A stretch of DNA of 64,000 nucleotides, from NCBI RefSeq assembly GCF_964213995.1, contig NC_135830.1:8246001-8310000 (forward strand). The letters are read 5' to 3'. This document shows, one piece after another, positions 3,026-64,000 of this stretch. The first letter of the stretch is position 1, and each line of letters starts with the position of its first letter. Position numbers and translations under genes: made by a program. The notes beneath the pieces were generated by a model. It saw only the letters and a list, made by a program, of their open reading frames with translations, made no database searches and was not told where the DNA came from. This stretch comes from Mustelus asterias. Lineage: Eukaryota.

Positions 3026-3152
3026 CTGTCAGGAAGGAGATTAAGAATAAAATTAGATATGATTCAGGGAAAGAAATAGCCATTTAGACTGAGGACGGGT
3101 TAAAATAAAAATGTACACACTCACAGAAGAATTAAATCTATTTTTTTTAATG

Positions 3153-15183: not shown

Positions 15184-15676
15184 ATGCTTTTGGTCATACT
15201 GGCGGCGCTCTCGCACAGTAAGCACTGGATGATGTTCATCAAACCGGATAAATATATTGATGGCAACTTGATTAACAATCTAAAATATCCATGCGATGCG
15301 CAGAATGGAGGTTCCACAAACTATCGCAGATACAAACACATTTACGTTAACACTTGATATTTCATTCTTCTGCCTTTCCAGACGGGCTGTGCGTAGATCC
15401 AGTAACTCAGTCACCGGTGACAATAACCGCATCGGAAAGGGGCTTTGGCGCAGTTACATTGTAATTAGAGAGAAAAGGATATGCACAGCATGCAATGGTA
15501 TCAGCAGAAACCGGCACAGCCACCGACATGGATTATTTCCAAAATATTAACAATGAAGGAAGATAAAGTTTCAGGACGATATCTGGCGATAGCTAACAAG
15601 TCTAATCAGAACGGTTACCTTAATATCAGCCACCTTCAGTGTGGGGGACGGGGCTGTCAATTACTGTGCAATTAGG
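15184..15676 (+). pseudogene. TCR alpha/delta-type V segment 1 (pseudogene)
   Basis: Leader MLLVILAALSH 15184-15217|gtaag; acceptor at 15381. Exon reads DPVTQSP...AQLHCN...MQWYQQKP...GYLNISHLQ...YCAIR, with frameshifts in FR1 and FR3. Confidence 0.85.
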
Positions 15677-17320: not shown

Positions 17321-17577
17321 AAGACAATGCAGTATCATCCTTAAATTAAAGAATGCGGATGATTTTCTCATCACAAAACCCACTCTCACTGAGTGGCTGC
17401 TTCTTCAATCGGATAAGTTATGCCCTGACTGTCAATATGTCTGAGCAAAGCCGCTGTCAGGAATTGCAAAGCCCTGGCAACGGCGCTCACATACTCCATT
17501 TCCTGTTCTCGTTCTGACATGTCTTGCCTGCAGTGTGCTGTTTATTTGATCGCTACAGCAACTGTAAACAGGGGTGA

Positions 17578-17616
17578 GGTTTTTGTACAGTGACTGCCGT
17601 CTTTCCTCTCAGTTTG
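17578..17616 (-). other. 23-RSS with mutated heptamer
   Basis: CAAACTG + 23 nt + perfect nonamer ACAAAAACC. Confidence 0.85.
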
Positions 17617-18034
17617 GGCTCTATCGCACAGTAATATAAACCGGTATCCGTGCTCTCCATGTTTTCAATCATCAACTGGCTCGATTTGTCCGCAGTGGAA
17701 AGTTGCAATTCGAATCGGTCCTTTCTCTCTTTGCCATCCGAGAATCTGCGTATCATCCACTGCAGACCTTGACCGGGCTTTTGTCTGTACCGATACATTC
17801 TGTAAATGCTGGACATATCATAGCTGCAGTTTAGCCGCACCGAATCCCCGCTCTGGGCTGTTCTGGCTATGGGAGTTTGTGAAACTTGGTCCGAACGACA
17901 CCGGTCTATAAAAAAAACATTTAGTCAATTCGGCACTGGAGAAAATGCATTTAAATAGCAGTCTCGACACGTTATAGAGTAACTTTCTTGCACTTACAAA
18001 TTAGTAGAACCATAATAAAATGGAACAGACTCAT
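17617..18034 (-). CDS. TCR alpha/delta-type V segment 2 (open frame, conserved Trp changed to Arg)
   Basis: Leader 18034-17998 MSLFHFIMVLLI|gtaag; exon 17905-17617. Spliced: YRCRSDQVSQTP...VRLNCSY...MYRYRQKPGQGLQW...DRF...DTGLYYCAIE. Confidence 0.88.
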
Positions 18035-34637: not shown

Positions 34638-35367
34638 AGACTGAAAGCGCAGTAATACGCAGCAGAGTCAGTCCACTACAGACCCAATGTATTTAAACTA
34701 GTCACTTTTTTCCCACTCTGGAGTTGCTGCAAAATCTGCTTTATCCTCAGTATCCCAGGAGCTTTTACTCACGATAAATTCCGTTTGTAGATCTGGGAGC
34801 TGTCGATACCAATCTAACTAAAGTTTAGATTTATTTATTTGTCAGAAGTAATGTTTGCATTAACACTGAAATGAAGTTACTGTGGAATCCCCTCGGTCGC
34901 CACACTCCGGCGGCTGTTCGGGTCAATGCACCTAACCAGGACGTCTTTCAGAATGTGGGAGGAAACCACAGCACGCAGATGAAACCCACGCAGACACGGG
35001 GAGAACGTGCAAACTCCACACAGACAGTGACCCAAGCCAGGAATCAAACCCGCGTCCCTGGTCCTGTGAAGCACTGTGCTACCCTGCCGCCAGTGCCAGC
35101 AATAATAGTTGCTGGCTGTGGCATCAAAGGTGCAGGTCATTGTCACCGCTTCTCCTTGTGCCTTAACATCTGAGGAGCGTCGCTGAGTCACAGAATCTTA
35201 GTTAGATCTGGAAAGAGAAGAAATATAATCACATCTGAACAGTTCAGGCTATAGGGTGCTAAGATTTGAACCGTGCTTGATAAATGCGAGAAAAGATTAA
35301 ATGTATTTAATCTCCAAGCACCTGCTCGGAATGATCCGCACACAACCCAGATGCTGAGCAGCCGCAT
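34638..35367 (-). pseudogene. TCR delta-type V segment 3 (pseudogene, split by a SINE)
   Basis: Leader 35367-35322 MRLLSIWVVCGSFRA|gt. Exon from 35207: DSVTQ...GEAVTMTCTFDATASNYY, then the SINE, then LDWYRQLPD..EFI...EDKADFA..LQSGKKVTSL...DSAAYYCAF, with frameshifts and a stop. Confidence 0.88.
34820..35091 (-). mobile_element. HE1-like SINE inserted at the CDR1/FR2 boundary of V segment 3
   Basis: Minus strand GGCGGCAGGGTAGCACAGTG...GGTCACTGTCTGTGTGGAGTTTGCACG...CAGTAACTTCA...AATAAATAAA. Confidence 0.85.
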
Positions 35368-40710: not shown

Positions 40711-40856
40711 AAAACGTGAAACCTTCTGGTGTAGATCTTCTGTTAAATATGAGGTTTGTGGGCTTCAATTCAAACGATAATGCCCTGACCAGGATCCGAA
40801 AAGAAAGGCCTAATGTTTGGAATCAGATTTTCAACATTTTTAACCCTCCCTTACAG

Positions 40857-41758
40857 CCAATTTGATGGCTATCGTGATCCTATCCAGAGGACGGTGTGGA
40901 CTGTCCCAGTGCATCACCTACTACCTGGTGGCAATCGCGGTGACTGATTTCCTGGTTATGATTTCTGCTGTCATCCTCAACCGGATTGGTGGCATTTACT
41001 TTCGATATAGTGTCCTCTCCACCACCCCCGGGTGCACGGTCAGCAGCGTCCTGGTATATACCACCCGTGATGGGTCCGTCTGGCTGACTGTAGCCTTCAC
41101 CATCGACCGTTTTGTGGCCATCTGCTGCCAGAGCCTGAAGACCAGATACTGCACCGAGAAAACAGCATTGCTGGTTATCGGAATAGTCTGTGCACTGAGC
41201 TGTGTCAAAAACATCCCTTTCTTCTTCACCTATCAGCCCTTGTATATCCTAGACGGGGTGCCTTGGTTCTGTGATATCAAGTCCACCTTCTACACGTTAA
41301 CCATCTGGCAGGCCTATCTCTGGCTAGACCGCATATTAACACCATTGTTTCCATTCTTCCTGATCCTGCTGCTCAACGCTCTGACTGTGAGGCACATCTT
41401 AGCAGCCAGCAGGGCCCGCAGGAGACTCCGGGGTTCCGAGAGTCGGGGAGACATGGAGATGGAAAACCGCAAGCGGTCTATTGTCCTGCTTTTCGCCATC
41501 TCCCTCAGCTTCCTCCTCCTGTGGGTCATATATGTCGGTCATTTCCTCTACGTACAGATTTCGGGTGAGCCATACTTCACCGGCCTGGATTTCAATGACC
41601 CGCAGTACATCCTTCAGGAGACGACCAACATGCTGCAACTACTTAGCTCCTGCACTAACATCTTCATTTACGCAGTGATTCAGACCAGATTCAGGGAAGA
41701 GATCAAGAACCTGTTGATGTCTCCGTTCGCCACCCTCAAAGGTTTTCTGAAACGGTGA
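40857..41758 (+). CDS. GPR139-like GPCR gene 2, exon 2
   Basis: Acceptor ccttacAG|CC at 40856. 7TM motifs: YLVAIAVTDFL, SVWLTVAFTIDRFVAICC, PFFLILLLN, CTNIFIY; AATAAA at 41874. Confidence 0.93.
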
Positions 41759-43972: not shown

Positions 43973-46604
43973 TCCATGAAATATTTCATCATTTCCCGCG
44001 TCAGATATTTGAGCGCTTACTTACTTTTCAATAACCCTCAATGGAGAAAATGACCTTTGTTGTAGCAATTTCCATTCAGTTGTCCCAGTGATAGCCTTCA
44101 ATCCATTTCTGCCTTCTGTGAGTGTACAAAAACTCCAATCACTCCATGCATTTGAATTGAAGATTATTTAAAAATGTAATTATTTATTGATAACCGTTCT
44201 GTTGTGCGTTGTTGCTTTTGGAGTGATTTCAGATAGTCTATTTCGTTCCCAGCATCGACTCTCATGTCTTTCGAGCTCAGTTGGAAAATTGATTAAATCA
44301 CGTCGTGAATGAGGAGCGGATTACTGACAAATGATTAACTCAACCTCTCACAGAAAGGCCTCACACAAAATTCGAACGCGCAAATGATGGCAAAAACGTT
44401 CCTGGGCTGTACTTGACAGGAGATAAAGACTCTCGGAATTCTCAGACATCTTATTGCTATTGATGCAAAGGATGGAAACCTTTGCTTCTCGCCAGAGAAT
44501 GTGCAATATTTCTGTTTCTACAAATTTGAACGTTACCTTTCCAAATCACACAGTAATCGCCCGAAATATTTTAGACTGATTGAACTCCCTGCAGATTGTA
44601 CAATCTAGAAAAATTGATTTAAAAAATGAATGAGGATTACATGTAGCATAAAGAGAGACCAGACCTTGTGTAATGTACAAAGTAGTAGGGGCTGGTGTAT
44701 ATGGGCTGCAGAGATTCAAGGCGGCAGCTCATCACCACTTTATATGGGTCAATAAGAGCAGGCAACCAATTCTGACCTAACCAGCGACGTCCACATGCTA
44801 TAAATTATGAATAAAGACAGATATGCCAGTGCAATGGTAACATAAACTCTTCATGGGAGTAATATAAACCAATATTTGGGCTGCATGGAATAAGAGAGAC
44901 TGGACCTGCTATAACTTTAGAATAAACAGAAAAGTTATTTGTGTGATCAGTAAAGAAAAGTACTTTGTCTAATAATAACTAGGAGGAGTCAAATGTACCA
45001 AACCAGAGATAGGTCCTTATTCTGAATTGATTGTGAAACTGTTTGCAGAAGTAATCGTAGAAAGTTAGAGTGCTAGAATTTGAATAACCGGCTCAAGTCT
45101 ATCAATAACAGAGACTGTCGGGCCTGTGGACAGACTTGACGCTGATATAAGGAAACAGTGATTCTTATGGCCTTAACGCAGGTTTCTGTGTCATTGTGAG
45201 TGACATAGCGATTTGTGTGGTAAATACGGAGAGAAATGTCACGCCAAACGCAGGAGTGACTAACTCCAATCTGACTGAGGGTTAATATTCCCAAGGCGTA
45301 CCCCAGAGATTTTTGATATCTGAGGCGACAATGCTGCATCTGTCAGAGGAACAGAAAATCACCTGTTCCTTCTCATTCTTACCAATAGTTCCCCACTTAC
45401 ACAGACAGACAAATGTCCGATCCGGCATCTTGCAGAAAACAAGGTTTAAATCTTCAGCTTAGCACATGCGATGACTAAAATTTGAAATTTCAAAACCTCA
45501 TCGGAGGAAAAACTGTGCATCAAATATGAAGGGTAATTGTGCTTTTTCTAAACAACTTATATCGTGTGTTATTCTGTTGAAAGCGATGATTTGTAAAGTG
45601 TAATGAATATCGGAATTGTTCCTGGCAATTATCAACACACTCAAGTTCTGTTAAAAGACAGGATTGGCACAAGACGACAGCTATATAAATATTCTCTTCT
45701 ATTAAGTCTCAGTAAAGGACGGAGATGGATAGAGAAAGGATGTTAAAATAATGGAAGGTAACTTATGCTATCATTTCCCGGCTTCAGAGAACAGAGGGAG
45801 CTCAGTGACTGATCCACTGACCATTCACTTATCTCCTGCAATGGAAGCGCTAAATAGATCATAACAGCCTCATTTGTAATTGTCACAGCAAGGTGACTAC
45901 TGTGACTCTGCCCTAACGCAGTGGACAGATATCGGCTGTCTTGACAGATCTTCTCATCAGATTGTGGCCCCTGGATTTATTTTCTGCTCAGAAGTGAGAT
46001 GTGCGGTTTGGAACCGGCAGCAGAGAAACACCAAGTTGTTCAAAACAGCCGGAGTCAGTTTGATGTTATCTCCATGAACATTCTTCCTGCCTGTGAAGGT
46101 GAACTCACTCTGAGAGCACCAAGAAAAAACAGAGAGATTACTGCCGCTCTCAGCATTACATTTACACCCATTCCAATTTTAAAGAATAAAACCAATGACA
46201 ATATTTGGGTTTTAACACATTAACTGAAGGGGACTTGGAGAAAAAAAAGGAAAATTCAAGTAATAATTTTGCTCACAGAGTTATTCTAGAACAGAAAAAT
46301 GTAGATGTGTTAGGTGTTGTGTGGGGGTAAGTGAGGGGACAGGTAATGCGAGTGAAATAGTCTGTTTCTCTCACTGAATTTCCTCTGATGAGAATTTTGT
46401 GATTCATCTTTTCAGTTAGAAGGTACCTGAAGCAAAAACTTAAGCATTGTTTACTACTAGCTGACAGGTCCGGCAGGTACCTGTTTTTGTCAGTTGATGG
46501 ATTGAGAGAGAGGGAGAAGAGAGGTTATCTGATTTAGGTACAGTCTGAGACAGAGAAAGGAGAATACAAGCACAGTCAGTCATTTGAAAGATGCATTGCC
46601 TTAT

Positions 46605-46880
46605 CAGCGGAAGGCACAGTGGTTAGCACTGCTGCCTCAAAGTGCCAGGGACCCGGGTTTGATTCCTGTCTTGGGTCACTGTCTGTGTGGAGTTCGCACG
46701 TTCTCCGCGTGTCTGCATGGGTTTCCTCCGGGTACTCCGGTTTCCTCCCAGAATCTGAAAGACGTGCTGGTTAGGCACATTGGTCCGAGCAGGCGCCGGA
46801 GTTTGGCGAGTACGGCAATTTCACAGTAACTTCATTGCAGTGCTAATGCAAGCCTTACTTGTGAATAATAAAAATAAAAT
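46605..46880 (+). mobile_element. HE1-like SINE (variant tail); further copies at about 47085-47280 and 48252-48535
   Basis: GGCACAGTGGTTAGCACTGCTGCCTCA...CACAGTAACTTCATTGCAGTG. Confidence 0.82.
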
Positions 46881-47546
46881 AAACATCTCTTTTAGGAGCG
46901 TCCAGGGCAATTCATTACCTTTAGGTATTGACTGAGGCATAGGATCTATAAGTGAATACTCAATAAATTATCATAACATGCTTAAAGACAATTACAGTTA
47001 ATTGCAGCTCACTTTTGTAAACAATGAAAAAATATATGTTTCAGATGCAGCCACATCCACACTAACACATACAAGTGCACTCACAGGGGTGGTATGGTTA
47101 CAAAATGGCTAACACTGCTCTCTTACGACTAACCCAGGTTCAATGTTGGCCTTGGGGGTCTGTCTGTGTGAGGTTGCACGTTCTGCCACTTGGGTTTCTT
47201 TCTCGGTGCTTCGTTTCCTCCCACAGCCCAAAGATGTGCATCTTCGGTGGATTGGTCATGCTAAATTAACCTTTAGTGTCTATTTGCATTGCAACATTGA
47301 GACGTTTATTCAGTTCCTAAGTCTCTTTTGAATCACATCATGTTACACGATTCACCCCAAGCTTCCAAACAAATATTACACACAATACGAGAGTGATTAG
47401 ATATCGTGCACAACAGCTAATAGTTATTAAGAAGACGAAACGTATTTTTCCAACCAAAGGCGATTGACAGCTTTCACCCATACGCATATATAATATTTTT
47501 AAAAAGTTAATATCCATCTCGTCAACTAGTTATCTTTCTCTCCCTT

Positions 47547-47582
<36 letters not shown>

Positions 47583-49355
47583 ACTATCAAATGCATTTTG
47601 TAGAGAAGTAATAACTGAGACAGTCTCCGTTTTATTATTAGAACCCAATGTAATACAAATCGAGTCACACGTCAGTTTAATAGTGAATTAAATAGAGCCG
47701 AACACCATAATAACCGAGAAGGAGCCTAATGGAACATAATGGACACTTTATGCAGATAAACAACACTGGAGAAATGAAAACTCGTAGTTTATCTCGCGGC
47801 ATTTCCACGTGTATTAATAAGTGAAACTGCATAGAATGTAATGTGAATAGATACAATGTCTGTGACAATAATCTCTCAGAAGGAGTCAAATGTAGTATAT
47901 AAAGAGGCATGGCCTAGTGCATGACTGGATGCGACTCCACCTAAAGTAATCAGTGTCTAACGTAGCAATAACCGAGAAAGGATTAATTGGGGCACAGATA
48001 GAAGCAAGGCACTGTGCATTAATAAACTAAACTTCAGATCGCGTTATGAACATACGTACAGTGTTGGAAGAAAGATAAAATGAATCATGTCTAGTCCAGT
48101 CATAACTGAAACAATTCATATGCAATAAAACGATTGCATGGTTAAATGCAGTAATAATTGAAGTATTCAAACTCAGTAATTGAGTGTAATCAAACTAAAC
48201 TCAATGTGCAGTGAAATATAAACGCACACATGGCCGCACTATAGCAAGTGTGGGGCGGCATAGTGGTACAGTGCTTAGCACGGCTGCCTCACAGCACCAG
48301 CGACCTGGTTTCGTTTCCTGGCTTAGGTTCTCCCTCTGTCTATATGGATTTGCCTCCGGGTGCTCCGGTTTCCTCCCACAGTCCAAAAGATGTGCTGGTT
48401 CTGTGCATTTTCCATGCTAACCTCTCCCGCAGTGTACCCGAACAAGTGCCAGATAGTGGCGACTGGGGGATTTTCACAATAACTCAATTGCAGTGTTAAT
48501 GTAAGCCTACTTGAGACTCTAATAAATAAATAAAAACGTAAAAAAAGTTCAGTTGTAGGTTCCACGGAATCATAGCGTAATTCAGTAAAAACAGTATACG
48601 ATCTGATGTTACGAAACCTGAGAGGATCAGTTGCCGTGGTGACAGAGAAAGACTTGGTACAGTAATACCGCTCCAATAATACTCAAAGATTGCTGAGTGT
48701 TTCTGGCATGTTTTTTTTTTTCAGATCCCATGCATCTGCAGTATCATGTTTTTGCGCAACCAGACATTGGATGAATAAAAGGATGGTCAATAAAGGGACA
48801 GTTTTATGGATTGGGTTAAATGAGGAAAGTGAGATAAAGAGATGTAGTGAGGGAATAATAGAGTTTAAGGACTAGGTAGGTGAAGGCATCACAAACTGAA
48901 CGAGATGAGCGCTTTCTGATCGTATGGACATTTATCCTATCGTTCCAGCAGGACTCATCCAGCCAATTGGAGAGAATCCCATTACACTCCTGACTTGTAA
49001 CTTGTGGATGTTGGACAGGTTTTGGGGAGTCAGGAAGTGAGTTATTCGCCACAGGATGCTTATCAGGTGTTTTGATAATCTAGCGGAACAATAATTTGGC
49101 AATCCAGCATCCAGCGACTGCTCAGTGGTATTCGCCAACGTGTTTAAAATGGGCGATTCAGCGTTGGTAAAGCCATTGAATGTCAAGGGACAATTATAAG
49201 AACTTTTCTTGTTGGAGATGTCGTTGCATGTCACTTGTGTGGCGCAAAACGGTATTAATAATCATCAATTCAGAAAGAGAGAAAGTTATATTGACCAATG
49301 CCGATAAATTCAATAGATTACTGTACTTTAGATTACTATAGCATACTACATGCTA

Positions 49356-49480
49356 TAATTACCATAATTTACAAAAATAAATAATTGTTTTCACTAATTA
49401 TCATCAGTTCACAAACATGAATAATTATTTCACCAATTACCATCAATTCACAAAGATAAATAATTATTTCACCAATTATT
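49356..49480. repeat. AT-rich tandem repeat, about 39 bp x 3
   Basis: AATAATTATTTCACCAATTACCATCAATTCACAAA-like unit. Confidence 0.75.
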
Positions 49481-50274
49481 TTCAGAATTTTATTATATAC
49501 GAAATGCAGTGGTTTATTTAATGCAATTTTTTGAGATTGAAATGCATTGAGATCACTTTGGCATTTCTGTCACCAAGGAATTAATTCTGTCCCAGAACTC
49601 GGTGAGAAATGGAATTAATTCAGACCGAGGACAATGACCAGCTACTCGGCAGCCTCTGCGCTTTATTGGCAAGTAATACCCTCGCCATCAGACAGAAACT
49701 CCTGATATATAACTGGAGCGTGTGATCATTTTGAAAGTGACAGGATGAGTGGAAAAAAAAACCTGTACATTAGACTAGGTTGTTGATTCTTAAAATCCCG
49801 ACTAATTGTTAAACTATTTGGGAATGTTTCTATTGCCACTGAGGGTATGCTCAATGATTTGTTGCACATGAAAGGACCACAAGTTCCAAATATATGCCCT
49901 CCTTAACCTAATCATTTTCCCTTATTTTTATCTTGGAAATGAATATTTTCATTATCAGTAAAGAACCATCAGTCCCGCCGAAAAATCTCCTCCATCTCTT
50001 AATGAATGCTAGCTCCCGATAACCTAGGGATGGATTTCACCCAGAAAAAACTGGATGAGTGGAAGGTATTAAACAGACACAAATAGAATAAAGGAGCTGC
50101 TTCAACTTATGAGGTAGTCAAGTACAAATATGGGAATGTAGAACACCATCTTTCAGGGACATCTACCGACGCATCCATCAATTAATTCACTGATTTCTCA
50201 ATTCAGGTTTTCAGGCACCCAACTATCATTCATTCCTGCATCAACGCAATCATCCGTTTATTTTTTTGGGTTGA

Positions 50275-50605
50275 TGGTGGCGTAATATTAATGCCATTGG
50301 ACGTAATCCAGAGGCTCAGATCAATGATGTGGGGATAGGGGTTTAAATCCGACAGTGGCAGCTGGTGAGATTGAAATGAAACAATCTGGAAGATATACCG
50401 ATGGTGACCAGGGAATCCTCTCTCATTCCCCAATGTAGAAAATCCGCCATCCCTACCTGCTCTCACCAAGGTGTGACTCCAGACGGACCACAATATGGCT
50501 GACCCTTCAATGTCTTATGAGATGCCGTAGCAAAGCGCTCAATTCATGAACAGTTAGGGGCGGGAAAGGAATATTGGTCTTGACAGTGATCCCACAGCCC
50601 CTGAA
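50275..50605 (+). mobile_element. SacSINE1-like SINE
   Basis: GGTGGCGTAAT...TAATCCAGAGGC...GGTTTAAATCC...GTGACTCCAGAC. Confidence 0.65.
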
Positions 50606-50659
50606 AACAAAGGGAGAAAAAAAACCCAAATATGCATGTTTACGCATTACAACAGCTAT

Positions 50660-52122
50660 AGAAAACCTTGTGTAGGCCGTACTTGGAGTACTGCCTGGAG
50701 TTCTGGTCACCACACTACTAGAAGGACGTGGAAGCTTTGAAGAGAGTGCAACGAAATTTCATCACGATGTTGCCTGGTCTCGAGGGTGTTGCCTATGAGC
50801 GGAGGTTGAATAAACTGGGATTGTTTCCGAGGAAAATGCAACTGGTTTGATCAGTAAGTTTGCTGATAACACAAAGGTTGGTGGATTTGCAGGTCGTGAT
50901 TAGGACGTTGAGAGGATACAGCAGGACATGAATCTGTTGGAGACTTAGGCGGAGAGATGCAAGCTAGAGTTTACTCCGGACAAATATGAGATAATGCATC
51001 AAGAAGGCATACAGCATGCTTACCTTCATCGGTCGGGCCATTGAGTTTAAAAATTGGCTAGTCATGTATAAAAAAATCCAAGTTTATAATAACCTGTGCT
51101 CATAGCCAACACCATCGAGACCAGGCATGTTGCAGCTTTATAGAACCTGAGTTAGGCTGGATTTGGAATATAGTGTTCAATGCTGGTCACCACACTACCA
51201 GAAGGATGTGGAGGCTTTGGACAGTGTACAGAATAGATTTAACAAGATGTTGCATGGTATGGAGGGCATTAGCGATGCTGACAGGTTGGAGAAACTTGGT
51301 TTGTTCTCACTGGAACGACGGAGGTTGAAGGGCGATCTCATAGATGTCTACCAGATTACGAGGGGCGTGGACAGAGTGGATAGTCAGAAGCTTTTTCGCA
51401 GGGTGGAAGAGTCAGTCACTGGAGGTCATAGGTTTGATGTGCGAGGGGCAAGGTTTAAAGGCGATGGACCGGGCAACTGTTTTACACAGAGGGTGTTGGG
51501 TGCCTGGAACTCGCTGATAGGGGAGGTCGTGGAAGCAGATACGACAGGGGCGCCTTGACAAATGCATGAATAGGATGGGAATAGAAAGATACGATCCCCG
51601 GAAGGGGGTGTTTCAGTTCAGTCTGGCAGTATGGTCGGTGCAGGCTTGGAGGGCCGAAGGGCCTGTTCCTGTGCTGCAATTTTCATTGTTCTTTGTTCTT
51701 TGTTTTCACTGGAAAGACGGAGGCTGAGGGGAGACCTGATAGTGGTGTACAAACCTTTGAGAGACATAGACATGATGGATAGTCAGAGGCTGTTTCAAAG
51801 GATGGTAGTGTCAATTACAAGGGGGCACAGGCTCAAGGTGTAAGGGTGAAAATTTATGGGAGGAATGCACGGAAAGTTTTTCAGGCAGAAAGTGCTGGGT
51901 GCCTGGAACCCGCTACCAGAGCAGGTGGTGGAAGCAGGCACATTCGCATCATTTAAGAGGTAACTGCGTGGGTACATGAATATGGAGGAAATAGAGGGGT
52001 ACAGACCAAGTAAGAGCAGAAAGTTTCTTCTTTTGTTTTTTTGGGACATTATAATCGGCACAGGCTTGGAGGGCCAAAAGGCCTGCTCCTGTACTGCAAT
52101 TTTCTTTATTCTTTGTTCTTTT
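50660..52122 (+). mobile_element. Stacked CR1 3' fragments (two complete tails in tandem)
   Basis: Repeated WSPHY.KDVEAL and RGDL..VY motifs; two GGAGGGCC.AA.GGCCTG tails. Confidence 0.85.
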
Positions 52123-52314
52123 TCTTTAACATCAGTCCTCTCTTTGAGTCATCTCTCACAGTCTACCTGTATTTCTTTTCAACCAACCATCGCAATGTCC
52201 TGATGTGTTGGTGAGATCATCATTGTTGCTAACAATGTGCCAGAGAACCTGGTTAACTTTCCTGTCCTGAGAAATGGGAACAGTTTAAAAAAGTTTACAA
52301 CTTGATAAAAGTAA

Positions 52315-52655
52315 CACAGTGGTTAGCATAGTGGTTAGCACTGCTGCTTCACAGCTCCAGGGACCTGGGTTCGATTCCCGGCTTGGGTCACTGTCTGTGT
52401 GGAGTTTGCACATTCTCCTCGTGTCTGCGTGGGTTTCCTCCGGGTGCTCCGGTTTCCTCCCATAGTCCAAAGATGTGCGGGTTAGGTTGATTGGCCACGC
52501 TAAAATTGCCCCTTAGTGTCCTGAGATGCGTAGGTTAGAGGGATTAGTGGGTAAAATATGTAGGGATATGAGGTAGGGCCTGGGTGGGATTGTGGTCGGT
52601 GCAGACTCGATGGGCCGAATGGCCTCTTGCTGTACTGTAGGGATTCTATGATTCT
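52315..52655 (+). mobile_element. HE1 SINE, full length, young
   Basis: Perfect B box GGTTCGATTCC, V-domain, tail GTAGGGATTCTATGATTCT. Confidence 0.9.
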
Positions 52656-53230
52656 AAATTGCCTCCAGTCTTGTTGCTAGGTAGATTTGTTTATGAATAT
52701 TCCTCATTGACACTGTTAAGAATTTGACGTTTGCACCCAACATTCTCTGCCTGAAAAACTTCCCCCACACATCTCCCTTAGACTTTACAGACAAGCGGTC
52801 AGTACTGAGGAAACAAATCTTTGATTTGCAAGTATAAACACCACCAGATGTTTCCTGTGAATAACTTTGGGCGTTTGGCAACCGGCTGGATTGCTGCTAA
52901 ATGCTGTGTGGGGCAGATGAGCGTGAATTGAATTGACCCTGCATTGTTGCAAAATAGACGGATGGTCTCTTTATTCTCTGAAAACGTAATTCAGTTTAGT
53001 TTTATCTGCTTGCTAAAGGGTGCGGAAATTAAATAATTACATTTACAATAGAATCAGCGTTTTTAAAGCAGAGACGATGAACTGCAATATCACCATTAGA
53101 AATGGGACATTACAGTGAATCTATTCAGTCAAACCAATTTCCCTATACCAATAAAAGGTCAATTTTAATAACAATGCATTGTAAATGTCAGAGTCCATTC
53201 TGTTGGGCGCATGGAAGATGGGACGTGGAT

Positions 53231-53297
53231 CCAATCGCCGCCTCCACCAGGGAATCAAAAGGCTGGAAAGTCGCGCCCTTCAGCCGGGTATTTAAAT
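53231..53297 (+). promoter_or_regulatory. IgH V promoter (CCAAT and TATA-like TATTTAAA)
   Basis: CCAAT at 53231 and TATTTAAAT at 53289, about 100 bp upstream of the VH leader ATG; no perfect octamer seen. Confidence 0.5.
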
Positions 53298-53387
53298 GCC
53301 GCTCACTGGGACCGGAATACAACAGTCCGGGAGCTGGTTTGTTCACTGAGTTCCTGACACAACCATTTCCCCCTAATGACCAGAAGG

Positions 53388-53602
53388 ATGAGGTCGACGA
53401 TATCTCTCAGTTTGTTGCTGACTTTCTTATCCGGTGAGCAGATTTATTGTCCAAGCCTCTCACTGTTACTGTCTCATTGTTATTTTATCTATGGAATGTT
53501 GCAGAGTCAGCAATCATTTCACCAGGGTTAATCCTCGTGTTTTTTGATATATTTGTACAGGTGTCCACTCGGAGATTATGTTCGCTCAGCCAAAGGCAGA
53601 GA
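53388..53602 (+). pseudogene. IGHV: IgM VH leader exon plus truncated VH exon
   Basis: 53388-53433 MRSTISLSLLLTFLS G|gtgag; acceptor tacAG at 53560; GVHSEIMFAQPKAE (shark VH start GVQSE..LTQPEAE), then breaks off. Confidence 0.88.
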
Positions 53603-54034
53603 GGCATCGCTGAGAAGAAACTGATAGCCACGTTCCGCACACACCAGGACGGCCTCAACCGGGATATTGGGTTCATGTCACACTATTTGTAACCCGCACA
53701 GTTGCCTCGACCTGCAGAGTTTCACTGGCTGTCTTGTCTGGAGACAATACACATCTTTTTAGCCTGTCTTGATGCTCTCTCCACTCACATTGTTTTGTTT
53801 CTTAAAGACTTGATCAGTTGTAAGTATTCGCATTCCAACCATTATTCATGTAAATTGAGTTTGTGTCTTTATATGCTCTGTTTGTGAACAGAATTCCCAC
53901 TCACCTGAAGAAGGGGCTTAGAGCTCCGAAAGCTTGTGTGGCTTTTGCTACCAAATAAACCTGTTGGACTTTAACCTGGTGTTGTTAAACTTCTTACTGT
54001 GTTTACCCCAGTCCAACGCCGGCATCTCCACATC
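53603..54034 (+). mobile_element. Penelope-like element 3' end (GIY-YIG C-terminus, terminal repeat, hammerhead)
   Basis: IAEKKLIATFRTHQDGLNRDIGFMSHYL-stop; terminal repeat AAATAAACCTGTTGGACTTTAACCTGGTGTTG...CCCAGTCCAACGCCGGCATCTCCACATC. Confidence 0.8.
53902..53938 (+). ncRNA. Minimal type I hammerhead ribozyme (Penelope type)
   Basis: CAC-CUGAAGA-A-GGGGCU(UAG)AGCUCC-GAAA-GC-UU-GUG: both catalytic boxes, stem II, stem I CAC/GUG and palindromic stem III. Confidence 0.7.
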
Positions 54035-54308
54035 ACGTTCTCTTTTAATCCAATGAATATATGTCATTCAGATAACAGCAGAATGTATTCTTATTATGCC
54101 GGGATAGAAACGGAGAAAGATATGTGAGTTTCTATAGGGGACAATCAGTGCAGAAACCTAAACGATAGAAATAGTAGAATATCAAATTGAAATTTGAAAA
54201 CGAAGCTGTGAAGATAGGATCATAATTGTAGTCGAATTATTAATTCCTTGATTTCTTATTGAACAGAATAACAGAGTGTAATTTGTTCAATCGGTCATTC
54301 TTTGCTCG

Positions 54309-54606
54309 CACCGCCATCTCCGCCTACTCTCTACAGCCTGGTCTCCTGTCAGCAACGCAAGTCCGACGGCTCCATCACCTATGGCTGTTTGGCGATGGGC
54401 TACTCTCCAGAAATCACCAGCCTGACCTGGAAGAAAGAAGGGCAGCCGATCACCACTGGATTTAAGACTTACCCATCAGTCAGAAACCATGATGGGAACC
54501 TCCTCCCTGAGCAGCAAGTTAACCATCACTGAGTCAGGGGGAGCATGCAGCAAAATTAACTGTGAGGTTCGACACAGCGGATCAGACCATAGCATTGAAA
54601 TGCAAT
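54309..54606 (+). pseudogene. IGHM: IgM Cmu1 exon (acceptor lost, frameshifted)
   Basis: [15 protein letters not shown]...[22 protein letters not shown]; +1 frameshift near 54495; continues [15 protein letters not shown]; donor gtaagt; acceptor reads CG, not AG. Confidence 0.9.
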
Positions 54607-54816
54607 GTAAGTATTGAGGATCCTGGGAAGAACAGAAACACTGTTATTAAACTGTATAGAGCCTTGGTTATAACACATATATAGAAATCTCTAGTCCTAC
54701 TCCATGAAAAAAACTACTCTGGTGTCGCCTGACGGCAAATAAATTGTCAAAATATAAGTAATTTTATTTGTTATCAAAACATTCTACAAGAAATGACTAA
54801 CATGTGTTTCTTGAAG

Positions 54817-55128
54817 GTCCGACAGATGACATCCCTCCAACCGTTATGCTCACCGTGAGCTCCAGTGAAGAAATCACAAGCAGCAAAGTTGCAACCATCG
54901 ACTGTTCAATCGTCGGTTTCTATCCAAAGTCAGTGGCGGTGAAATGGCTGAAGAATGGACAACCCATGGATTCAGGAATTATCACCTCTCCCACCTGCAA
55001 AGTGAACGGGAACTCCTCGGCGAGCATGCGGCTGACAGTCTCCGCTCAATGGTTCAGCAAAGCGGTTTACACCTGCCAGGTCACTCATCAAGAACTCACC
55101 CAAATTCGGAACATCACCAGCTCTTTGG
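54817..55128 (+). pseudogene. IGHM: IgM Cmu2 exon (open, AG/GT intact)
   Basis: [34 protein letters not shown]...VYTCQVTH; 312 nt, phase 1/1. Confidence 0.92.
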
Positions 55129-55735
55129 GTAAGAGGCACCGACCATCAACCAATAAATCATTGTGCAGTCCGATGTTAATGAACATCAGGAATTCATTGA
55201 AGTTAATCCAAAGCACAGGACAACTTCTAATTTACTGCCATGTATTTCATTCTGATTTAAGAACTGCATTCGGATTGTTCAACATTTAGGATTTTATCTG
55301 AACAGGAAATAATGTTTCCCTCTACTTTGATATCATATAGTGTGTAAGGTGGACTTGACGTCAGCTTTGGCCTGAGGCATCTCAGAATATTTAGAGAGAA
55401 AGAGAGAGTGTGCCTGACATCATTTTTCAGGTAACAGATTCAGGATAAAGAGTTGAAAAGTGTATCCCGTCTATTCAGTGTGTTTTCCTGAGATCAGGAA
55501 TTGTATATTTGTATTGGGAATGGTGCAATGTTTATTCATTAGAATGAACGAGTTTAACGATGAGAATAGTTTTCACAGGCCAAGCTGATATTCCATTGTC
55601 TATAGAAGATAAAAGGCGACAATTAGAGTTTGATATCTGGAAGTTGATTTATTCCCATTTAGAGAATGAAGGCTGAATAATTCTGTTATGATTCTGAAGA
55701 GGGAACTGGGGTTGAATTTCAGTATCTATTCACAG

Positions 55736-56044
55736 ATTGTTCCCACTGTACTCAGTCCACAGTGACAATACTGCCACCGCGAATGGAACAGGTGTTACTG
55801 GAGGCGACTGTAACATCAACCTGCGTCATTTCTGATTCTCCTTATGGAGTCAGCGTGTCCTGGATCCCAGAAAAGAAGACTTTGAAAGCAGAGATTGCCG
55901 AAAAGCCTGGAGAGGATCCTGACAGCGTGCTCAGCAATTTAAACATCTCGACACAAGCCTGGCTGAGTGGGGCTGTGTTTGATTGCGTGGTGAGCCATCA
56001 GGATCTGCCGACTCCTTTCAGAAATTCCATCCACAAGAAAGAAG
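55736..56044 (+). pseudogene. IGHM: IgM Cmu3 exon (open, AG/GT intact)
   Basis: [25 protein letters not shown]...[20 protein letters not shown]; 309 nt, phase 1/1. Confidence 0.92.
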
Positions 56045-57359
56045 GTGAGTGGAGAGTCATTGTGCCTACTTCCAGTGTAAGTGTCAAGGTGAATATTTAA
56101 TATTCGGTGCATTTCAGGTCTACCAGAATTGGTAATTCCACTAACTAATCACTCTGGGACTGTAGAATTTGTATTGAGGAAATTGAGAAGTAGATGAAAG
56201 AAAATGAACTGAAGGGGTTTTTTTTACATAAAAACTTCCTTGTAAAAAATGACTTTCAACATTTTTTCCCCAAACTTCCTGCAAGTTTACTCTCTCTGGA
56301 AGATTTTTGTTCAATTTTGGGTTTAGGTGGAGTAAGACCATGCACCAGACAACGTAAGAGCAGAAGTAAGCCACTTGGTCCTAGACAAGCCCATTCTGGC
56401 ATGCAGGAAAATCCTGGTTGATCTGACATTGTAATACTCCATTCTACTTTCCCGCCTTATCCCCATAACCCTTGATTCCCTGACTGATTACAAACATGTC
56501 CATATCAGCCTTGAAAATACTTAACGACCCAGCCTCTGCAGCCCTCTGCGATAAATACTTCCTTAGATTCGCTACCATCTGAGAGAGGAAATTCGTCCTC
56601 ATCTCTCTCAACAATGGGCGACCCTTTCTCTGAGATTATACACTCAGCTCCTGGACTCTGCCACAAGAGGCAAAAAAACAGTAAGAGGGTTGTTCCTCTG
56701 ATCGAAGGAAAGATATACTGGCATTGGAAACAGTCAAAAGAAAGTCCACTAAGTTCATCACGGGTAAGGAAGGATTTTCTTATGATGAGAGGAGAGATAC
56801 GTTTGTCCTGTGCTTATTGGACCTTACTGAGACATGTAGGACTCTCGGGAGTCTTGACACGGTAGATGCTGATAGGTCTCCATTTTCATCTTTTTGATCT
56901 GTCCAGTTTCCCAGCTCGGAGCGGAGATGGATACACTTTTCTCTGGGAAATTAATGGGTTGGATTAGGAAGTTTCAGTAATTTACAGCACAGAAACAGGT
57001 CATTTGACCCTACTGCTCTATTTTTAACCTCCGTACCAGACTCTTCTCATCTTCTCCCAGAGGTTCAAGGGAAACAAATAAATGTAATGTACTTGGATTT
57101 CCCAAAGCCTTCAATAAGGAACTGCACTGAAGGCAATTTAATAAGAAAAAAAACCCTTAGTGCTGGTGGTAGTATATCAGCATGGATAGACAATTGGCTA
57201 ACTAACAGAAGACAGAGAGTCTGGATCAGGGTAACATTTCAGGCTGGTAAACTTTAACCAGCGGAGTGCCACCGGTACTATTTCTCTAACATCTGGCTCG
57301 CCGTTTCATTGTGTCCGGAATTCTCCAGTTTATTGACATTTATTCTACATTTTCGGCAG

Positions 57360-57751
57360 ATCCACATCTGTGGGAACCGTCCGTCTCTGTCCTCCTGCCC
57401 TCTGCAGAAGAAGTCTCCGCTCAGAGATTCGTCTCCCTCAGCTACTCAGTGAGACGTTTCTCTCCCCGAGAGATCTTCGTCAAGTAGACCGTCAACGACA
57501 AGCCACTGAATCCTGGGAACTAGAGGAACACCGAGGTGATGGCGAAGATCGGCAATAGCTCCTTCTTCATTTACAGTCTGTTATCCATTGCAACGGAGGA
57601 GTGGGCTAGCGGCGCTTCTTACTCCTGTGTGGTGGGACATGAAGCCATCCCCTTGAAGATCATCAACAGAACGGTTGATAAATCCAGCGATATACCCAGT
57701 TTTGTGAACATTTTCCTTGCACTGATGGACACCGTCAACTCATGTCAATGA
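57360..57751 (+). pseudogene. IGHM: IgM Cmu4 plus secretory tailpiece (two stops)
   Basis: [23 protein letters not shown](C>Y); TAG at 57485 and 57521; [40 protein letters not shown]; internal TM donor GT changed to AT; AATAAA at 57779. Confidence 0.93.
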
Positions 57752-58964
57752 GAATCAAACAGTTGCATTCAAAACTTCAATAAAATAATAAATGACGAAT
57801 GAAAATACCCAATCACTGACCTGATTGTTTTCCATTCTTACTTCCGTTTGATCTCTTTGACTTACATCTGATATTCAGAGAGTGTCGGATCCGTCTTGTG
57901 GAACCAAAGCTCCCACCTCAGATACATCCTGACTTACAGATAGACTGGAGATCATTCATCACAGGATACTGAGATATAACTTCACCAACCTTCCTCCCGC
58001 TGAGCAGAAATCTGACGATTTCCCATTTCTGATGAACAAACACAGCACATTTAGATCTCTGTGTTCCTGTTTCTTTCTTTGTCCATCTCTTTAACCTTGA
58101 CGTCAGCTTGAAGCTGTTGCACCACACCCACTGGGAACTGAAGCGAGGGTCACAAAGAAACATGGAAGAACAAGCCCCCATCAGAGAGAATGGCAGGGAG
58201 TGAAATGATTAACACACTGGACTCCTACTCACCCAACAAAGAGAGGGGAGGGGCATTAGTTTACTCACTGTCCCCCCACTCTCACAAAAAAGAGATGGGA
58301 GCGACATTAGTTAGCCCCATGTACCACCATAAAACAAATACAGAGAGGGCGTTGGGGCATTATTTATCCAACTATACTCCCACTTTCTCAATGAAAAGAT
58401 GAGAACGTTATTATTCAGCCAACTGCACCTCAACAGATGGAGCCAAAAGTAAAAATTGCTCCATCACTGAGAACGGGAAGCGATGACTTCACTATCCTTC
58501 CTCTCCCCAAGCAGGGAGTTTTAGAAAGGAAGAGCTGCCTAATGTAAGGATTCAGTTGCCAACTGAAGATATTGACTTCTGGTTTACTTGCCGCAGATTT
58601 TGAAATCTCATCATGCTAATCTTTTTACTGAATATGCATTTATGCAACATACTTTTAATGTGTTTTAACTCTCTTGTTCCTATTAATCATTTGCTGCCTT
58701 TGATACATCATATTCCAAATTTAAACCAATGATTGAATCCTCCCTGGTTTTCACTGTTCTGTCCTGGAGTTTTCTGAGATGCAAAAATGAATTATTTCAT
58801 TCGGTCAGCTGATGTCACCTTGTCACTCACATGCAAGAAAATTATACACCAAACATTGAAAATATGCTGCATAATTCGTATTGTCAGGTTAATGATTGCC
58901 GGTGAAACTTGGAATACCAGTTAAAAAATACACATAGTGACAATACTGCAGAAAACTGACACAA

Positions 58965-59915
58965 TTACAAGTACACATATAGACATACACATCCACACAC
59001 ATCAACACAAATGCACAAATACAAACACAAATACACATACTCACATTTATGCTCACAAATGCACAGACACGCAAATGTGTACGCATAGACACACATGCAT
59101 ACACCACACAATCACGTATATCCATATGCACATTTATGGATAACACATACAAATACAGACAAACAAATATAGACACAGAAGCACATGTTTGCACAACGCA
59201 CGCACACATACACAAAATGCATACATAAATATGCACAAACGCATTCGCCCACAAAAACACGCACAACACAGGCACCACTGAACACACATACAGAGGAGCA
59301 ATGGCAGTCACACCAACACACCCATACACGCAGATTTAAAAACACAGATTGACATACCCACAAATAAACACATACGAAATTATGCAGATGCACAAATACA
59401 CACATGGGCACACACAAATACACAAATGCTCAAACAGGCACAAAAACAAATACATACACACAAGCAATCAAATTAAATAATCACACACAAACCCGCACAC
59501 ACATACACATACAAACATGCAAGTGCACGCATACATGCACATACACGAATATTTACACAGACCCACACACATAAAACATACATACATATACACAAATAAG
59601 GACAGACACATACACACGTGCAGAGCCACATAAATCTGCGAACACACATACACTGAAACAAATACATATATATTAGCACACGTTAATGCTGAGAGGAATA
59701 CAGATATAAAGACAAACAATACCACACACATTAACACACATAGCACATTATAATCACATATAAGCACATTAGCAGATTATACACAGGCACATAGATGAAC
59801 AGAGAGCAAAACATTCACATGAAAATATGCAGACGTAAGCATTAACATGCTCATACAGAGCAGAACACCACTACACGCATTAGTGCACATGGAGACACAA
59901 ACACATATCAACACA
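58965..59915. repeat. CA-rich low-complexity tract
   Basis: Degenerate (CA)n/(CATA)n; source of the Cys/Val ORFs. Confidence 0.92.
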
Positions 59916-59929
59916 TAGGGTCATCGAGT

Positions 59930-60295
59930 CATAGAGGATTACAGCATGGAAACAGGCCCTTCGGCCCAACTTATCCATGCCGCCCTTTTTTTTAAACCCC
60001 GAAGCTCATCCCAATTGCCCGCATTTGGCCCATATCCCTCTATACCCATCATACCCATGTAACTATCTAAATGCTTTTTAAAAGACAAAATTGTACCCGC
60101 TTCTGTTACTTCTGGCAGCTTGTTCCAGACACTCACCACACTCTGTGTGAACAAATTTCTCCTCTGAACACTTTTGTATCTCTCCCCTCTCACCTTAAAC
60201 CTATGCCTTCCAGTTTTAGACTCCCCTACCTTTGGGAAAATATATTGATTATCTAGCTGATCTATGTCCCTTATTATTTTATAGACCTCTATGAG
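59930..60295 (-). mobile_element. CR1 tail (further CR1 pieces at about 56350-57275)
   Basis: DLIEVYKI..GRHRFKVRG..VWNKLP. Confidence 0.85.
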
Positions 60296-61280
60296 ATCTA
60301 GAACATAGTTATAAAGAACTATCAAGATGTAAATACATACAGTAACGCATTAAGAGACACGCGCACAGACTCAGAGAAATGGAAGTAAACATTAATAGTC
60401 TGATAGAAATGTGGAATACAAAAAGGGGGATCATTACCGAGCAACAGGCACGAACACATGCGCATGTATTACGGGTGGCATTAAGAAATAAGCATAGATT
60501 TCACACAATAATGCAGTCATACACACAGAATTGCAGAAGAATAAAATATACACACTGTTGAAGACGCACAAATACCCAAATGAACATTCATAGGGAAATG
60601 AATACGGACATTAACACTCATACATATTAACTCGGAATCAAAGATTAATGCAGAACACGAGATGCTCATACGCACAGCACAAATATAAAATTTTAAATAC
60701 AAACGGCAAGCAACTGATTGAAATAAAATTCAAACTTGACTATATTAATTGGCACATCCTCTGAAAACTGTCCGTATTATACAATGAACGGACAAATACA
60801 CAGAAGGGGTGCCCTCACTGAGAAACTAGTTAATGATATACTAAACATTTCGAACATAACTAAACATAGAGGATGGGAACTCACATCTGAATTCCTAAAC
60901 AACAAAATTCATAGTTTGCAGATCAGTAGCAATCTGCTAAAATAATCATCATTGATCAGTGAACGTTCCGCGATATCAACTATAACATACTTCAATAAGG
61001 GATAGTGCCAAACTGTTCGAAAATGGACTGATCCTGAAGAAAAATTCTTAAGGACTATCTGACAGATTCTGTCTAAGGAATGCAAATAATGAACAGTTGT
61101 GAAGATAGTTACGGAGATCGGTTACTGAGTCTCCCGAACTTAACAGTAGATATAGTTTAAAAATTAAATTTGAGAATAAATTAACAGCGTAAGAAAGTGA
61201 AAATGTAATATAGAAATAACAATAAAATTTCCTGGATCAATTAAGTAAATTAATTATATTTCCTTGTCTACGTCCCCTAG

Positions 61281-61397
61281 ACTCCACAGACCGCATCTGG
61301 GTTGAAGACAATGAGGATCATAATGGCAACAGATGGACAACCGCTTCCGCGTTCATCGTCCTAATCTTCCTAAGCATTTTCTACAGCATCGCAATCA
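61281..61397 (+). pseudogene. IGHM: IgM TM1 exon (3' end and donor deleted)
   Basis: ccctAG|(D)STDRIWVEDNEDHNGNRWTTASAFIVLIFLSIFYSIAI, the conserved antigen-receptor TM motif WTTAS.F..LF..S.FYS. Confidence 0.88.
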
Positions 61398-61482
61398 GAA
61401 GGGATTTGAAAAGCCCCTAAATGTTTCCTTGATTAAAAACTTTTTAAATCATCTGCTTCATTATTTTATCTCTCTTTTCCAG

Positions 61483-61491
61483 CTCAAATGA
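61483..61491 (+). pseudogene. IGHM: IgM TM2 exon
   Basis: ctcttttccAG|CTC AAA TGA (LK-stop; canonical VK-stop). Confidence 0.7.
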
Positions 61492-63224
61492 TGGGCTGAA
61501 TTTTGGATTCTGTAGTTTTCCCTCTGCTGATTATTAAGATGTCTATATGGCACAAATACAATACCTGGTCTTGGTGATTCGAGGAGTAACATTCCGTCAG
61601 TTTATGTTCCGCACTTGTAACTGAGACAAGTGTTGTCGGTATTTCTGTTTTTCAACTTAAAATTTACGGCATAATTATAGTTGTAAGATGATTGTATCTT
61701 GGAGTTTCCCCTGAATTTAATGTATAAATAAGTACATTTTCATGAAACATATTCACAATTGTTCATTTTCCTTTATCTTGAAGTCCTGTGTTCTTTTTCT
61801 GGTTCTTGGTACAATTGTACATATATTGGACAGCTCAGAGCGCAAGTGTTCTATTCTCAGTGCAAAGTTCAATCTTCATTTTCCCTTTTGTGAGCTTTAA
61901 AATAGACTTTTCTGTAAAATGTTCTTTGAAATTTTTATTAAATCTTGAATGAAATATGAACAAAATAATCTTCGAGCGAGGGTGTAAAATCTCGCCCTAA
62001 TTCAATGAAAGAATTGCTGCGCCACGCAGCGACCTATGCTGTAAATACATCTTTACCTCGCCTTTTTATGATAAAGTCCAATGATTGAACAGCGAGAACC
62101 TCGATGATTTCGCTTCTAACTGGTCTGTCACTGTCACATGCCAGGTAATTATGAACAGCACGAACTCTGCTTCATCATAGACCGATGCAGGACATTGTGG
62201 GAGAAAATAGTTTCCTTTACAATGTCCCACCAAGCACGGCCGGTGTCGCAGCATCGTGGCTTGACTGAGTGAATCTCTATATTCCCCGATGAAATGCTCA
62301 CAAGAAATGCGTACCGCAGACTAGAATATAACACAAACAGAACAGGGGTGCAAAACATAAAGTGGCCCAAGTGACTGAGGTGTATTTCACACTAACATAT
62401 CATCGAATGCAAACTTCCAAATAAAAGGGCTGATGAGATTTACCAGAGTAAAATATTGATGAAATTCTTGAAACCTGGGGTGTATCTGACACAGTTCAGT
62501 GCAAACCGTGGGAATTGTTCCCAGGCTGGGCCTTACTGATACAGAGATTTCAGCTTCGCATTTTGTTTAAAATATACAGGCAGATACATTGTTCTCCCAC
62601 AGTTCAATTAGATAGTGAAAGGGTCCACTGTCAAGAAAGTACAATGGCTGTCTGCTTCCACCATTATGGTTGTAATCACTGCCTTCTGTATCCATGATGC
62701 ATTTCTCCCTCTTTCGCTCCACTTCCTTTGATGCTAACGCCCAGAACTCATGAGGATCACTCCAGGGATCCTCTCTCCCTGCTCCATTGTCTCTGATGCC
62801 ATCTCACTAAACTCACTGAGCAACACCTCAGAGTTGCAGAGCAGTTCCTTCAACAATTTTTCAGCGATTCCTTCGAAGACTTCCTGTTACAGGAATTTCA
62901 GCAAAAATAAAACTCTGTTGGGATCCCAGTATCTTCCAATGTTTTCATTCTACTGTGAGGCAATTGATCCTCTGCAGACTTGAGGTGCAGGCATGTTGTT
63001 ATTTGACGTTTAATATCACAAATTACAAGGAGGAAATAATTCAATGTGTTCCATTGTCTGTGGGTCTTCAGTCGATGGTAGCATTAATAGGAAGGCAGAT
63101 TATTAATTGAAATGACCTCAATTGAGAGAGACGGATAATCAGCGAGAACTTGGTTTCCTCGTGCATCAGTCGCTGAAAATAGGCATGCAGGTACTGCAAG
63201 CAGTGAGAAGACAGACTGCATGTC

Positions 63225-64000
63225 AGACCATTAGACCATTAGATTTAGGAGCAGAATTAGACCATTCGGCCCAAGGAGACTGCTCCTGCATTCAATCGTG
63301 GCAACTATGATTCTCATCCACACTCTCCTGCCTTCTCCCCAGAACTCTTGATCCCCTTATCCATCAAGAACCTATCTATCTCTGTCCTAAAGACGCTCAG
63401 TGACCTGACCGCCACAGCCCTCTATGACAATGAGTTCCACAGATTCACCACTCTCAAGCTGAGGAAATTCCTTCTTCTCTCAGTTTTAAAGGAGCGTCTC
63501 TTCACTCTGACTTTGTGCCCTCGAGTTCTCGTCGCTCTCACAACTGGAAACATTCTCTCCACGTTCACTCTAACCAGGCCTCTCAGTATTCTGTAAGTTT
63601 CAACGAGATCCCCCCAGATCCTTCTAAACTCCATCGAGTATAGGCGCAGACTCTTCAACCGCTCCTCATATGAAAAACCCTTCATTCCTGCGATCATTCT
63701 TGTGAACCTCCTGGTGCCCCTCCAAGGCCAGCGCATCCTTCCTAAGGTATAGGGCCAAAAACTGCTCACACGATTTCAAATAGAGTCTGACCAGAGCCCT
63801 ATATACCCTCAATAGCACATCCCTCATCTTATATTCTAGCCCTGTAGAAATGAATGCAAATGTTGAATTTGCCTTCTCAACTGCCAACTGAACCTGCATG
63901 TTAACAATCAGAGAGTCCTGAGCTCGGACTCCTAAGTCCACTTGTGCACAGATTTCGGAAGCCTTTCCCAATTGAGAAGATTTTCTATGCTTCTCTTCTT
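63225..64000 (-). mobile_element. CR1 LINE 3' fragment
   Basis: RRFTRMI.GMKGFSYEERL, LYSMEFRR and LRVVNLWNSL motifs. Confidence 0.88.

Follow-up and report, generated by a model that had tools for sequence, protein, structure and literature searches.

A shark IgM cluster in which a 5'-truncated Penelope-like element stands in place of 5,664 bp: a likely one-step, insertion-associated deletion in a unit that likely encodes no functional protein

A shark IgM cluster in which promoter and leader lie next to the constant exons, and no V domain is left between them, raises a double question: is such a unit a V-less antibody gene or a broken one, and how was its V-D-J part lost? The cluster resides in a window of 64,000 nucleotides (G000:C71:8246001-8310000, C71 being the contig of the window) of the 3.68-Gb assembly of Mustelus asterias, to which the contigs C88, C444, C770, C160, C447, C1053, C132 and C128 named below also belong. 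The cluster was aligned with 10 other annotated ones, for a total of 11, among the at least 40 present in the assembly. Three undeleted close sisters (C770, C160 and C447) and three deleted copies (C71, that is the window, C88 and C444) were compared. Contigs from the public runs X1, X2, X3, X4 and X9 were also set against the window. The V-less layout is real. The whole is best explained, with good though not full confidence, by a broken IgM cluster in which a 5'-truncated Penelope element replaces 5,664 bp, likely deleted in one step by the insertion itself, and which likely encodes no functional protein.

The components of the unit are reported in Table 1. The original prediction, made from the letters of the window, had described promoter, leader and its intron, 14 VH codons, a Penelope-like 3' end, about 275 bp of intron, Cmu1-4, secretory tail, TM1 and TM2, and all of them have been located. 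Leader, four Cmu exons, secretory tail, TM1 and TM2 occur in order, as in a shark IgM minilocus. In the VH 5' region, 6 bp are missing from a GC-rich motif present in the other clusters compared, and most of the best PDB matches of Cmu3 are constant chains of IgM mu. The prediction listed the exons only, and the broken state of Cmu1, Cmu4 and TM1 is an addition to it. RSS, D and JH had been described as missing between VH stub and Cmu1. This is borne out by a scan with the commonly known RSS consensus, which found no RSS in this interval and recovers RSS in the undeleted clusters.

Table 1. Coordinates of the parts of the V-less IgM unit (positions in the window)
Feature	Position	Strand	Basis
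VH promoter / 5' region, TATA-like TATTTAAAT at 53289	53230..53375	+	alignment of 11 clusters
Leader exon, open, 19 codons + 1 nt, GT donor intact	53376..53433	+	
VH exon stub, 14 codons of FR1 (42 nt), after leader intron	53561..53602	+	
5' junction, GCAGAG microhomology + 5 extra nt	53596..53606	+	
5'-truncated Penelope-like retrotransposon, last codons of the ORF + 3' end, AATAAA at 53954	53607..54036	+	
J-C intron remnant, 3' end, 273 bp	54037..54309	+	
Cmu1, frameshift from 1-nt insertion at about 54488	54310..54606	+	
Cmu2, open frame, one codon missing in window and C444	54817..55128	+	
Cmu3, open frame	55736..56044	+	PDB comparison
Cmu4 + secretory tail, Cys>Tyr 57443, stops 57485 and 57521, polyA signal 57779	57360..57752	+	
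TM1, 48-bp deletion after 61397	61281..61420	+	
TM2 coding end	61484..61492	+	

Among the clusters compared, the closest undeleted relative is C770, 98% identical upstream and 96.6% in the intron and Cmu1. Relative to C770, 434 bp stand in place of 5,664 bp, which sizes the single multi-kb deletion, with Penelope at the breakpoint, that had been postulated. The nature of the missing DNA is probably different from that predicted. In C770, C160 and C447 alike, V is fused to D, the D carries a 12-RSS, a JH with a 23-RSS is found ~355 bp further on, and free D segments are missing. A full V-D1-D2-J set of RSS is retained in three more distant clusters (C1053, C132 and C71b). Since a germline VD join and the lack of a free D are common to the three close undeleted sisters, the parent of the deleted unit was probably a germline VD-J cluster, and the DNA lost probably comprised JH, the VD sequence beyond the stub and about 4.9 kb of intron, rather than the VH-D-D-JH originally supposed. 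The breakpoints fall in FR1 and deep in the J-C intron, and neither features an RSS or a coding end. The loss was thus no RAG-type join, as had been foreseen in setting this unit apart from known germline-joined clusters; joins at RSS-defined coding ends are found in the V-D fusions of the three sisters.

The block which includes the unit (44000-64000) changes affinity along its length. It resembles C160 at 44-45 kb, C770 at 49-55 kb (up to Cmu1), and C160 again from Cmu4 on, which suggests that paralogous IgM blocks have exchanged sequence repeatedly. Because of this mosaicism, C770 is only a proxy for the parent. C770 has independently lost Cmu2-Cmu4 (about 5.2 kb), and about 118 bp of other sequence are found at the join (C770:79306-79425). 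Two nearly identical IgM clusters sharing the same V-D join have been identified elsewhere, one at 7316-7334 kb of C71 and the other in C128. In the former, V-D has also been fused to JH, and the fusion is not in the J frame; in the latter, JH is still separate. The pair looks like successive stages of joining, either germline or somatic.

The inserted 430 bp have the same orientation as the IgM gene, and match many dispersed copies in the assembly at 96-98%. A longer member of the family encodes in a single ORF an RVT_1 domain (E 1.9e-9, above the Pfam cut-off) and a GIY-YIG match (E 3e-4) which, at 21.4 vs 22.6 bits, is 1.2 bits short of the cut-off. The RT domain and the near-cut-off GIY-YIG match of the longer copy identify the insert as Penelope-like, as first proposed, the window fragment spanning only the last codons and the 3' end. 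This 3' end coincides with the family terminus common to 23 of 26 copies, picked by similarity to the fragment, and adjoins the J-C intron at a site which is empty in C770. At the 5' junction GCAGAG is shared by VH and element, and the 5 extra nucleotides which follow match nearby VH sequence; 4 filler nucleotides lie between the end of the stub at 53602 and the fragment. Matches of at least 6 nt between 10-nt windows were found in 0.6% of 20,000 random pairs, the window size having been chosen after seeing the junction. No target-site duplication was found around the fragment.

Dating the insertion by the distance of the fragment from the family majority (11/430) was rejected, as only 2 of these sites are private and the 26 copies had been selected by similarity. 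Recombination between two Penelope copies was similarly discarded, since the sisters carry no copy at either breakpoint; the one found in the C770 intron is a short inverted fragment located at a different place.

The usual 3' end, the microhomology and filler at the 5' end, and the lack of a target-site duplication fit an insertion-associated deletion. The element sits at the breakpoint, intact at the 3' end and truncated at the 5' end, and the empty-site relative holds the deleted DNA and lacks the element. In the scenario proposed, reverse transcription of Penelope would have been primed, in a germline VD-joined parent, at a nick 273 bp before Cmu1. The unfinished cDNA may have paired through the 6-bp microhomology with VH FR1, 5.7 kb upstream, and end-joining may have added 5 locally copied bases, with loss of JH, of VD beyond the stub and of most of the intron. 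The unit would have decayed further, and been copied with a block of tens of kb to at least two loci.

It is unlikely, yet to be weighed seriously, that the gene died in two steps, by a normal insertion of Penelope into the J-C intron followed by a microhomology deletion reaching from the element to VH FR1. Such a history would leave the same junction. Microhomology and short templated filler, both present here, are typical of end-joining repair, and independent deletions of repair type have occurred in sister copies, of 120 bp in C88 and of Cmu2-4 in C770. Moreover, many Penelope copies are disabled by microhomology deletions, according to the accessible text of one report (PMC3846280). Against two events stand the absence of the element at the site in all three close undeleted sisters, and the short time available, as the fragment has accumulated only 2 private changes in 430 bp. 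Intermediates carrying the element next to an intact VD-J are missing among the same three sisters, but their loss would be unsurprising. The one-step deletion is the likelier reading.

Whatever its origin, the unit has lost much of its coding capacity. Reading through leader and VH stub ends at a stop at 53611, within Penelope, after 36 codons. Both AGs of the tandem Cmu1 acceptor (about 54305-54311) are mutated in the window, while C160 keeps both and C770 one. Cryptic acceptors were also considered as a way to restore the Cmu1 frame, and were rejected because each of the six other AGs in the 54240-54400 interval leads to a stop within 82 codons; no leader-to-Cmu1 splice tested yields an open frame. 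The cysteine replaced in Cmu4 is a conserved one. The donor of the membrane form in Cmu4 is changed from GT to AT at 57690, and the TM1 deletion takes away the last codons and the splice donor of this exon, hence both membrane-form donors are gone. In sum, V-D-J is reduced to 42 nt of VH, and constant exons and splice sites are broken. The working V-less IgM implied by the original prediction is not supported by these data.

Each of the three deleted copies carries both the frameshift and the first Cmu4 stop, which are absent from those undeleted sisters that hold these exons. The other four Cmu4/TM lesions are shared with C160 and C447, and lie in the tract which switches from C770-like to C160-like. 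The idea, prompted by these four lesions, that the cluster was dead before the deletion has been withdrawn, since the tract has been exchanged between lineages and C770 keeps the TM1 donor.

The constant-region changes look neutral. Those derived in the window are 15 N : 4 S (dN/dS about 1.1, from small counts), with P = 0.04 if the true dN/dS were 0.4, and P = 0.55 under neutrality. Stricter polarisation gives 11 : 1, and dN/dS between pairs of other clusters is 0.31-0.44. Cmu2 and Cmu3 alone show 9 N : 3 S (P = 0.17 vs dN/dS 0.4, a weak test). Because of the stop codons, the frameshift and the broken splice sites in the rest of the gene, the cluster most likely represents a dead copy rather than a novel type of antibody.

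Transcription of the unit is possible, to judge from the sequence. Unrearranged transcripts might be spliced from leader to Cmu2, Cmu3 and Cmu4, and encode a secreted precursor of 268 aa, devoid of V and Cmu1, ending at the first Cmu4 stop; that this occurs is very improbable. Counter to the death of the gene, the promoter region, the leader, Cmu2 and Cmu3 have been preserved with their splice sites, the exons agree in phase, and their conceptual join keeps a frame of 268 aa open. The stop would fall in the last exon of the secreted form, three copies have been kept, and V-less IgW transcripts occur in dogfish and nurse shark (PMC5192425, accessible part). The product would, however, lack most of Cmu4 and the tail cysteine, and the V-stub acceptor, also intact, leads to a stop and to the AATAAA of the element. 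The neutral look of the constant-region changes speaks against it as well, and the presence of three copies is due to duplication of a whole block, which also holds GPCR genes and V relics. Slightly less credible still is the full proposal that the Penelope insertion made a germline-encoded, rearrangement-free IgM derivative, driven by the intact VH promoter and made of leader, Cmu2, Cmu3 and part of Cmu4 with Cmu1 skipped, which, kept in three copies, would yield a secreted V-less Fc-like fragment. The hypothetical fragment would resemble a heavy-chain-disease protein. Of 23 runs listed, none is recorded as RNA, which tells neither for nor against expression. No splice joints are found among the 15 joints listed, out of 44, for the contigs of runs X1, X2, X3, X4 and X9, and these contigs cross exon-intron borders. 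They therefore look like DNA, and are uninformative on transcription. A dead copy is the reading retained.

The original prediction had raised the point of whether other clusters share the VH/Penelope junction. An exact 20-mer spanning the left junction has three matches in the assembly, on C71, C88 and C444, and its reversed control none; exactly three contigs, window included, thus share it. The three deleted copies are 0.08-0.21% apart over Cmu1-4. Over about 100 kb, C88 and C71 are collinear, with an identity of roughly 99%, and C444 diverges from both beyond about window position 79850. In a diploid, three copies imply at least two loci. In X1, contig depths are 38.7 for the junction and 26.5 for the C160-type allele, roughly 3 : 2, but depth is not copy number. 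A 136-nt contig of the same run spans 53538-53673, over the left junction, with 0 differences; since X1 may be the assembled animal, this support is technical, not biological. Bridging contigs were not found for the right junction among the run contigs listed, and this side accordingly rests on the three assembly contigs. The C88 copy lacks window positions 54244-54363 (120 bp; C88:1623260-1623261), and therewith the Cmu1 acceptor region and the exon start. This deletion is not among the joints seen in run contigs, and is known from the assembly alone. An assembly chimera through the Penelope repeat is extremely improbable: the element is very high-copy (1,814 candidates) and the right junction is unbridged among the listed contigs, but the junction is common to three contigs with different flanking variants, the left side is bridged by a run contig, and at neither breakpoint do the undeleted sisters carry a Penelope that could seed a mis-join.

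The comparisons with known systems refer to the accessible parts of the papers cited. Insertion-associated deletions are known for L1, Alu and SVA, those of SVA ranging from 14 bp to 8.7 kb, with pathogenic cases reaching 46 kb and more (Vogt et al. 2014, PMC4229983). The window shares with them a 5'-truncated retroelement at the breakpoint of a kb-scale deletion, of a size within the reported range. It departs from them in its element, which is Penelope-like (GIY-YIG) instead of L1-driven, and in its target, a shark IgM minilocus. For Penelope, 5' junctions with microhomology and no target-site duplication have been described (PMC3846280). Partially germline-joined VD-J IgM clusters are a known elasmobranch form (PMC5192425), which is that of the three close undeleted sisters, and hence probably of the parent; the loss of V in the window differs from RAG joining in the position of the breakpoints. 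V-less IgW transcripts in spiny dogfish and nurse shark, and V-less secreted IgD in catfish (PMC5192425), likewise have a leader adjoining constant exons and no V domain. Yet the IgW forms are spliced and RNA-detected, whereas in the window V has been lost from the DNA itself, the first C exon has a dead acceptor, and the unit is known from DNA alone. The leader does not run in frame to the first C exon, as it does in heavy chains of the IgW delta-V type, and the likeness holds only in outline because the leader-to-C1 splice is blocked. Nurse shark IgM pseudogene clusters, as Groups 6-8 and G2C (PMC2435157), are similarly non-functional miniloci among many paralogues. V-D-J was lost through a retroelement junction in the window, and no such lesion is described in the accessible text of that report. 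In a literature search that did not cover most subscription journals, in which much of the work on shark Ig is published, neither a V-less shark IgM gene nor a Penelope-linked Ig deletion was found, nor an insertion-associated deletion in a shark Ig gene. The window unit is most likely a recently duplicated IgM pseudogene, the V-D-J part of which was probably removed by a Penelope insertion through a mechanism of known kind.

Other features are interspersed in the window. Relics of TCR-type V exons occur at 17556-17900 (-), about 34640-35200 (-) and 15439-15663 (+). One is an open V-set frame in which the conserved Trp is missing and the RSS is decayed, another is apparently split by a repeat insertion, and the third is faint. 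IgH clusters amid TCR-type V exons have been published (PMC12227049, accessible part), and the arrangement in the window is alike. Two single-exon frames of rhodopsin-family GPCRs, 46% identical to each other, lie upstream of the cluster, at 2124-3083 (-) and 40844-41758 (+).

Units such as the one described mimic V-less antibodies, and this should be taken as a warning in annotation; the present one would be of immunological importance only if a spliced product were detected. At this locus, a likely insertion-associated deletion by Penelope in a vertebrate can be followed at the level of its breakpoints, the same genome also providing the empty site. As most likely read, it is a well-resolved case of death and turnover of shark IgH miniloci, in which one small subfamily combines germline V-D joining, retroelement-linked deletion, block duplication and exchange between paralogues.
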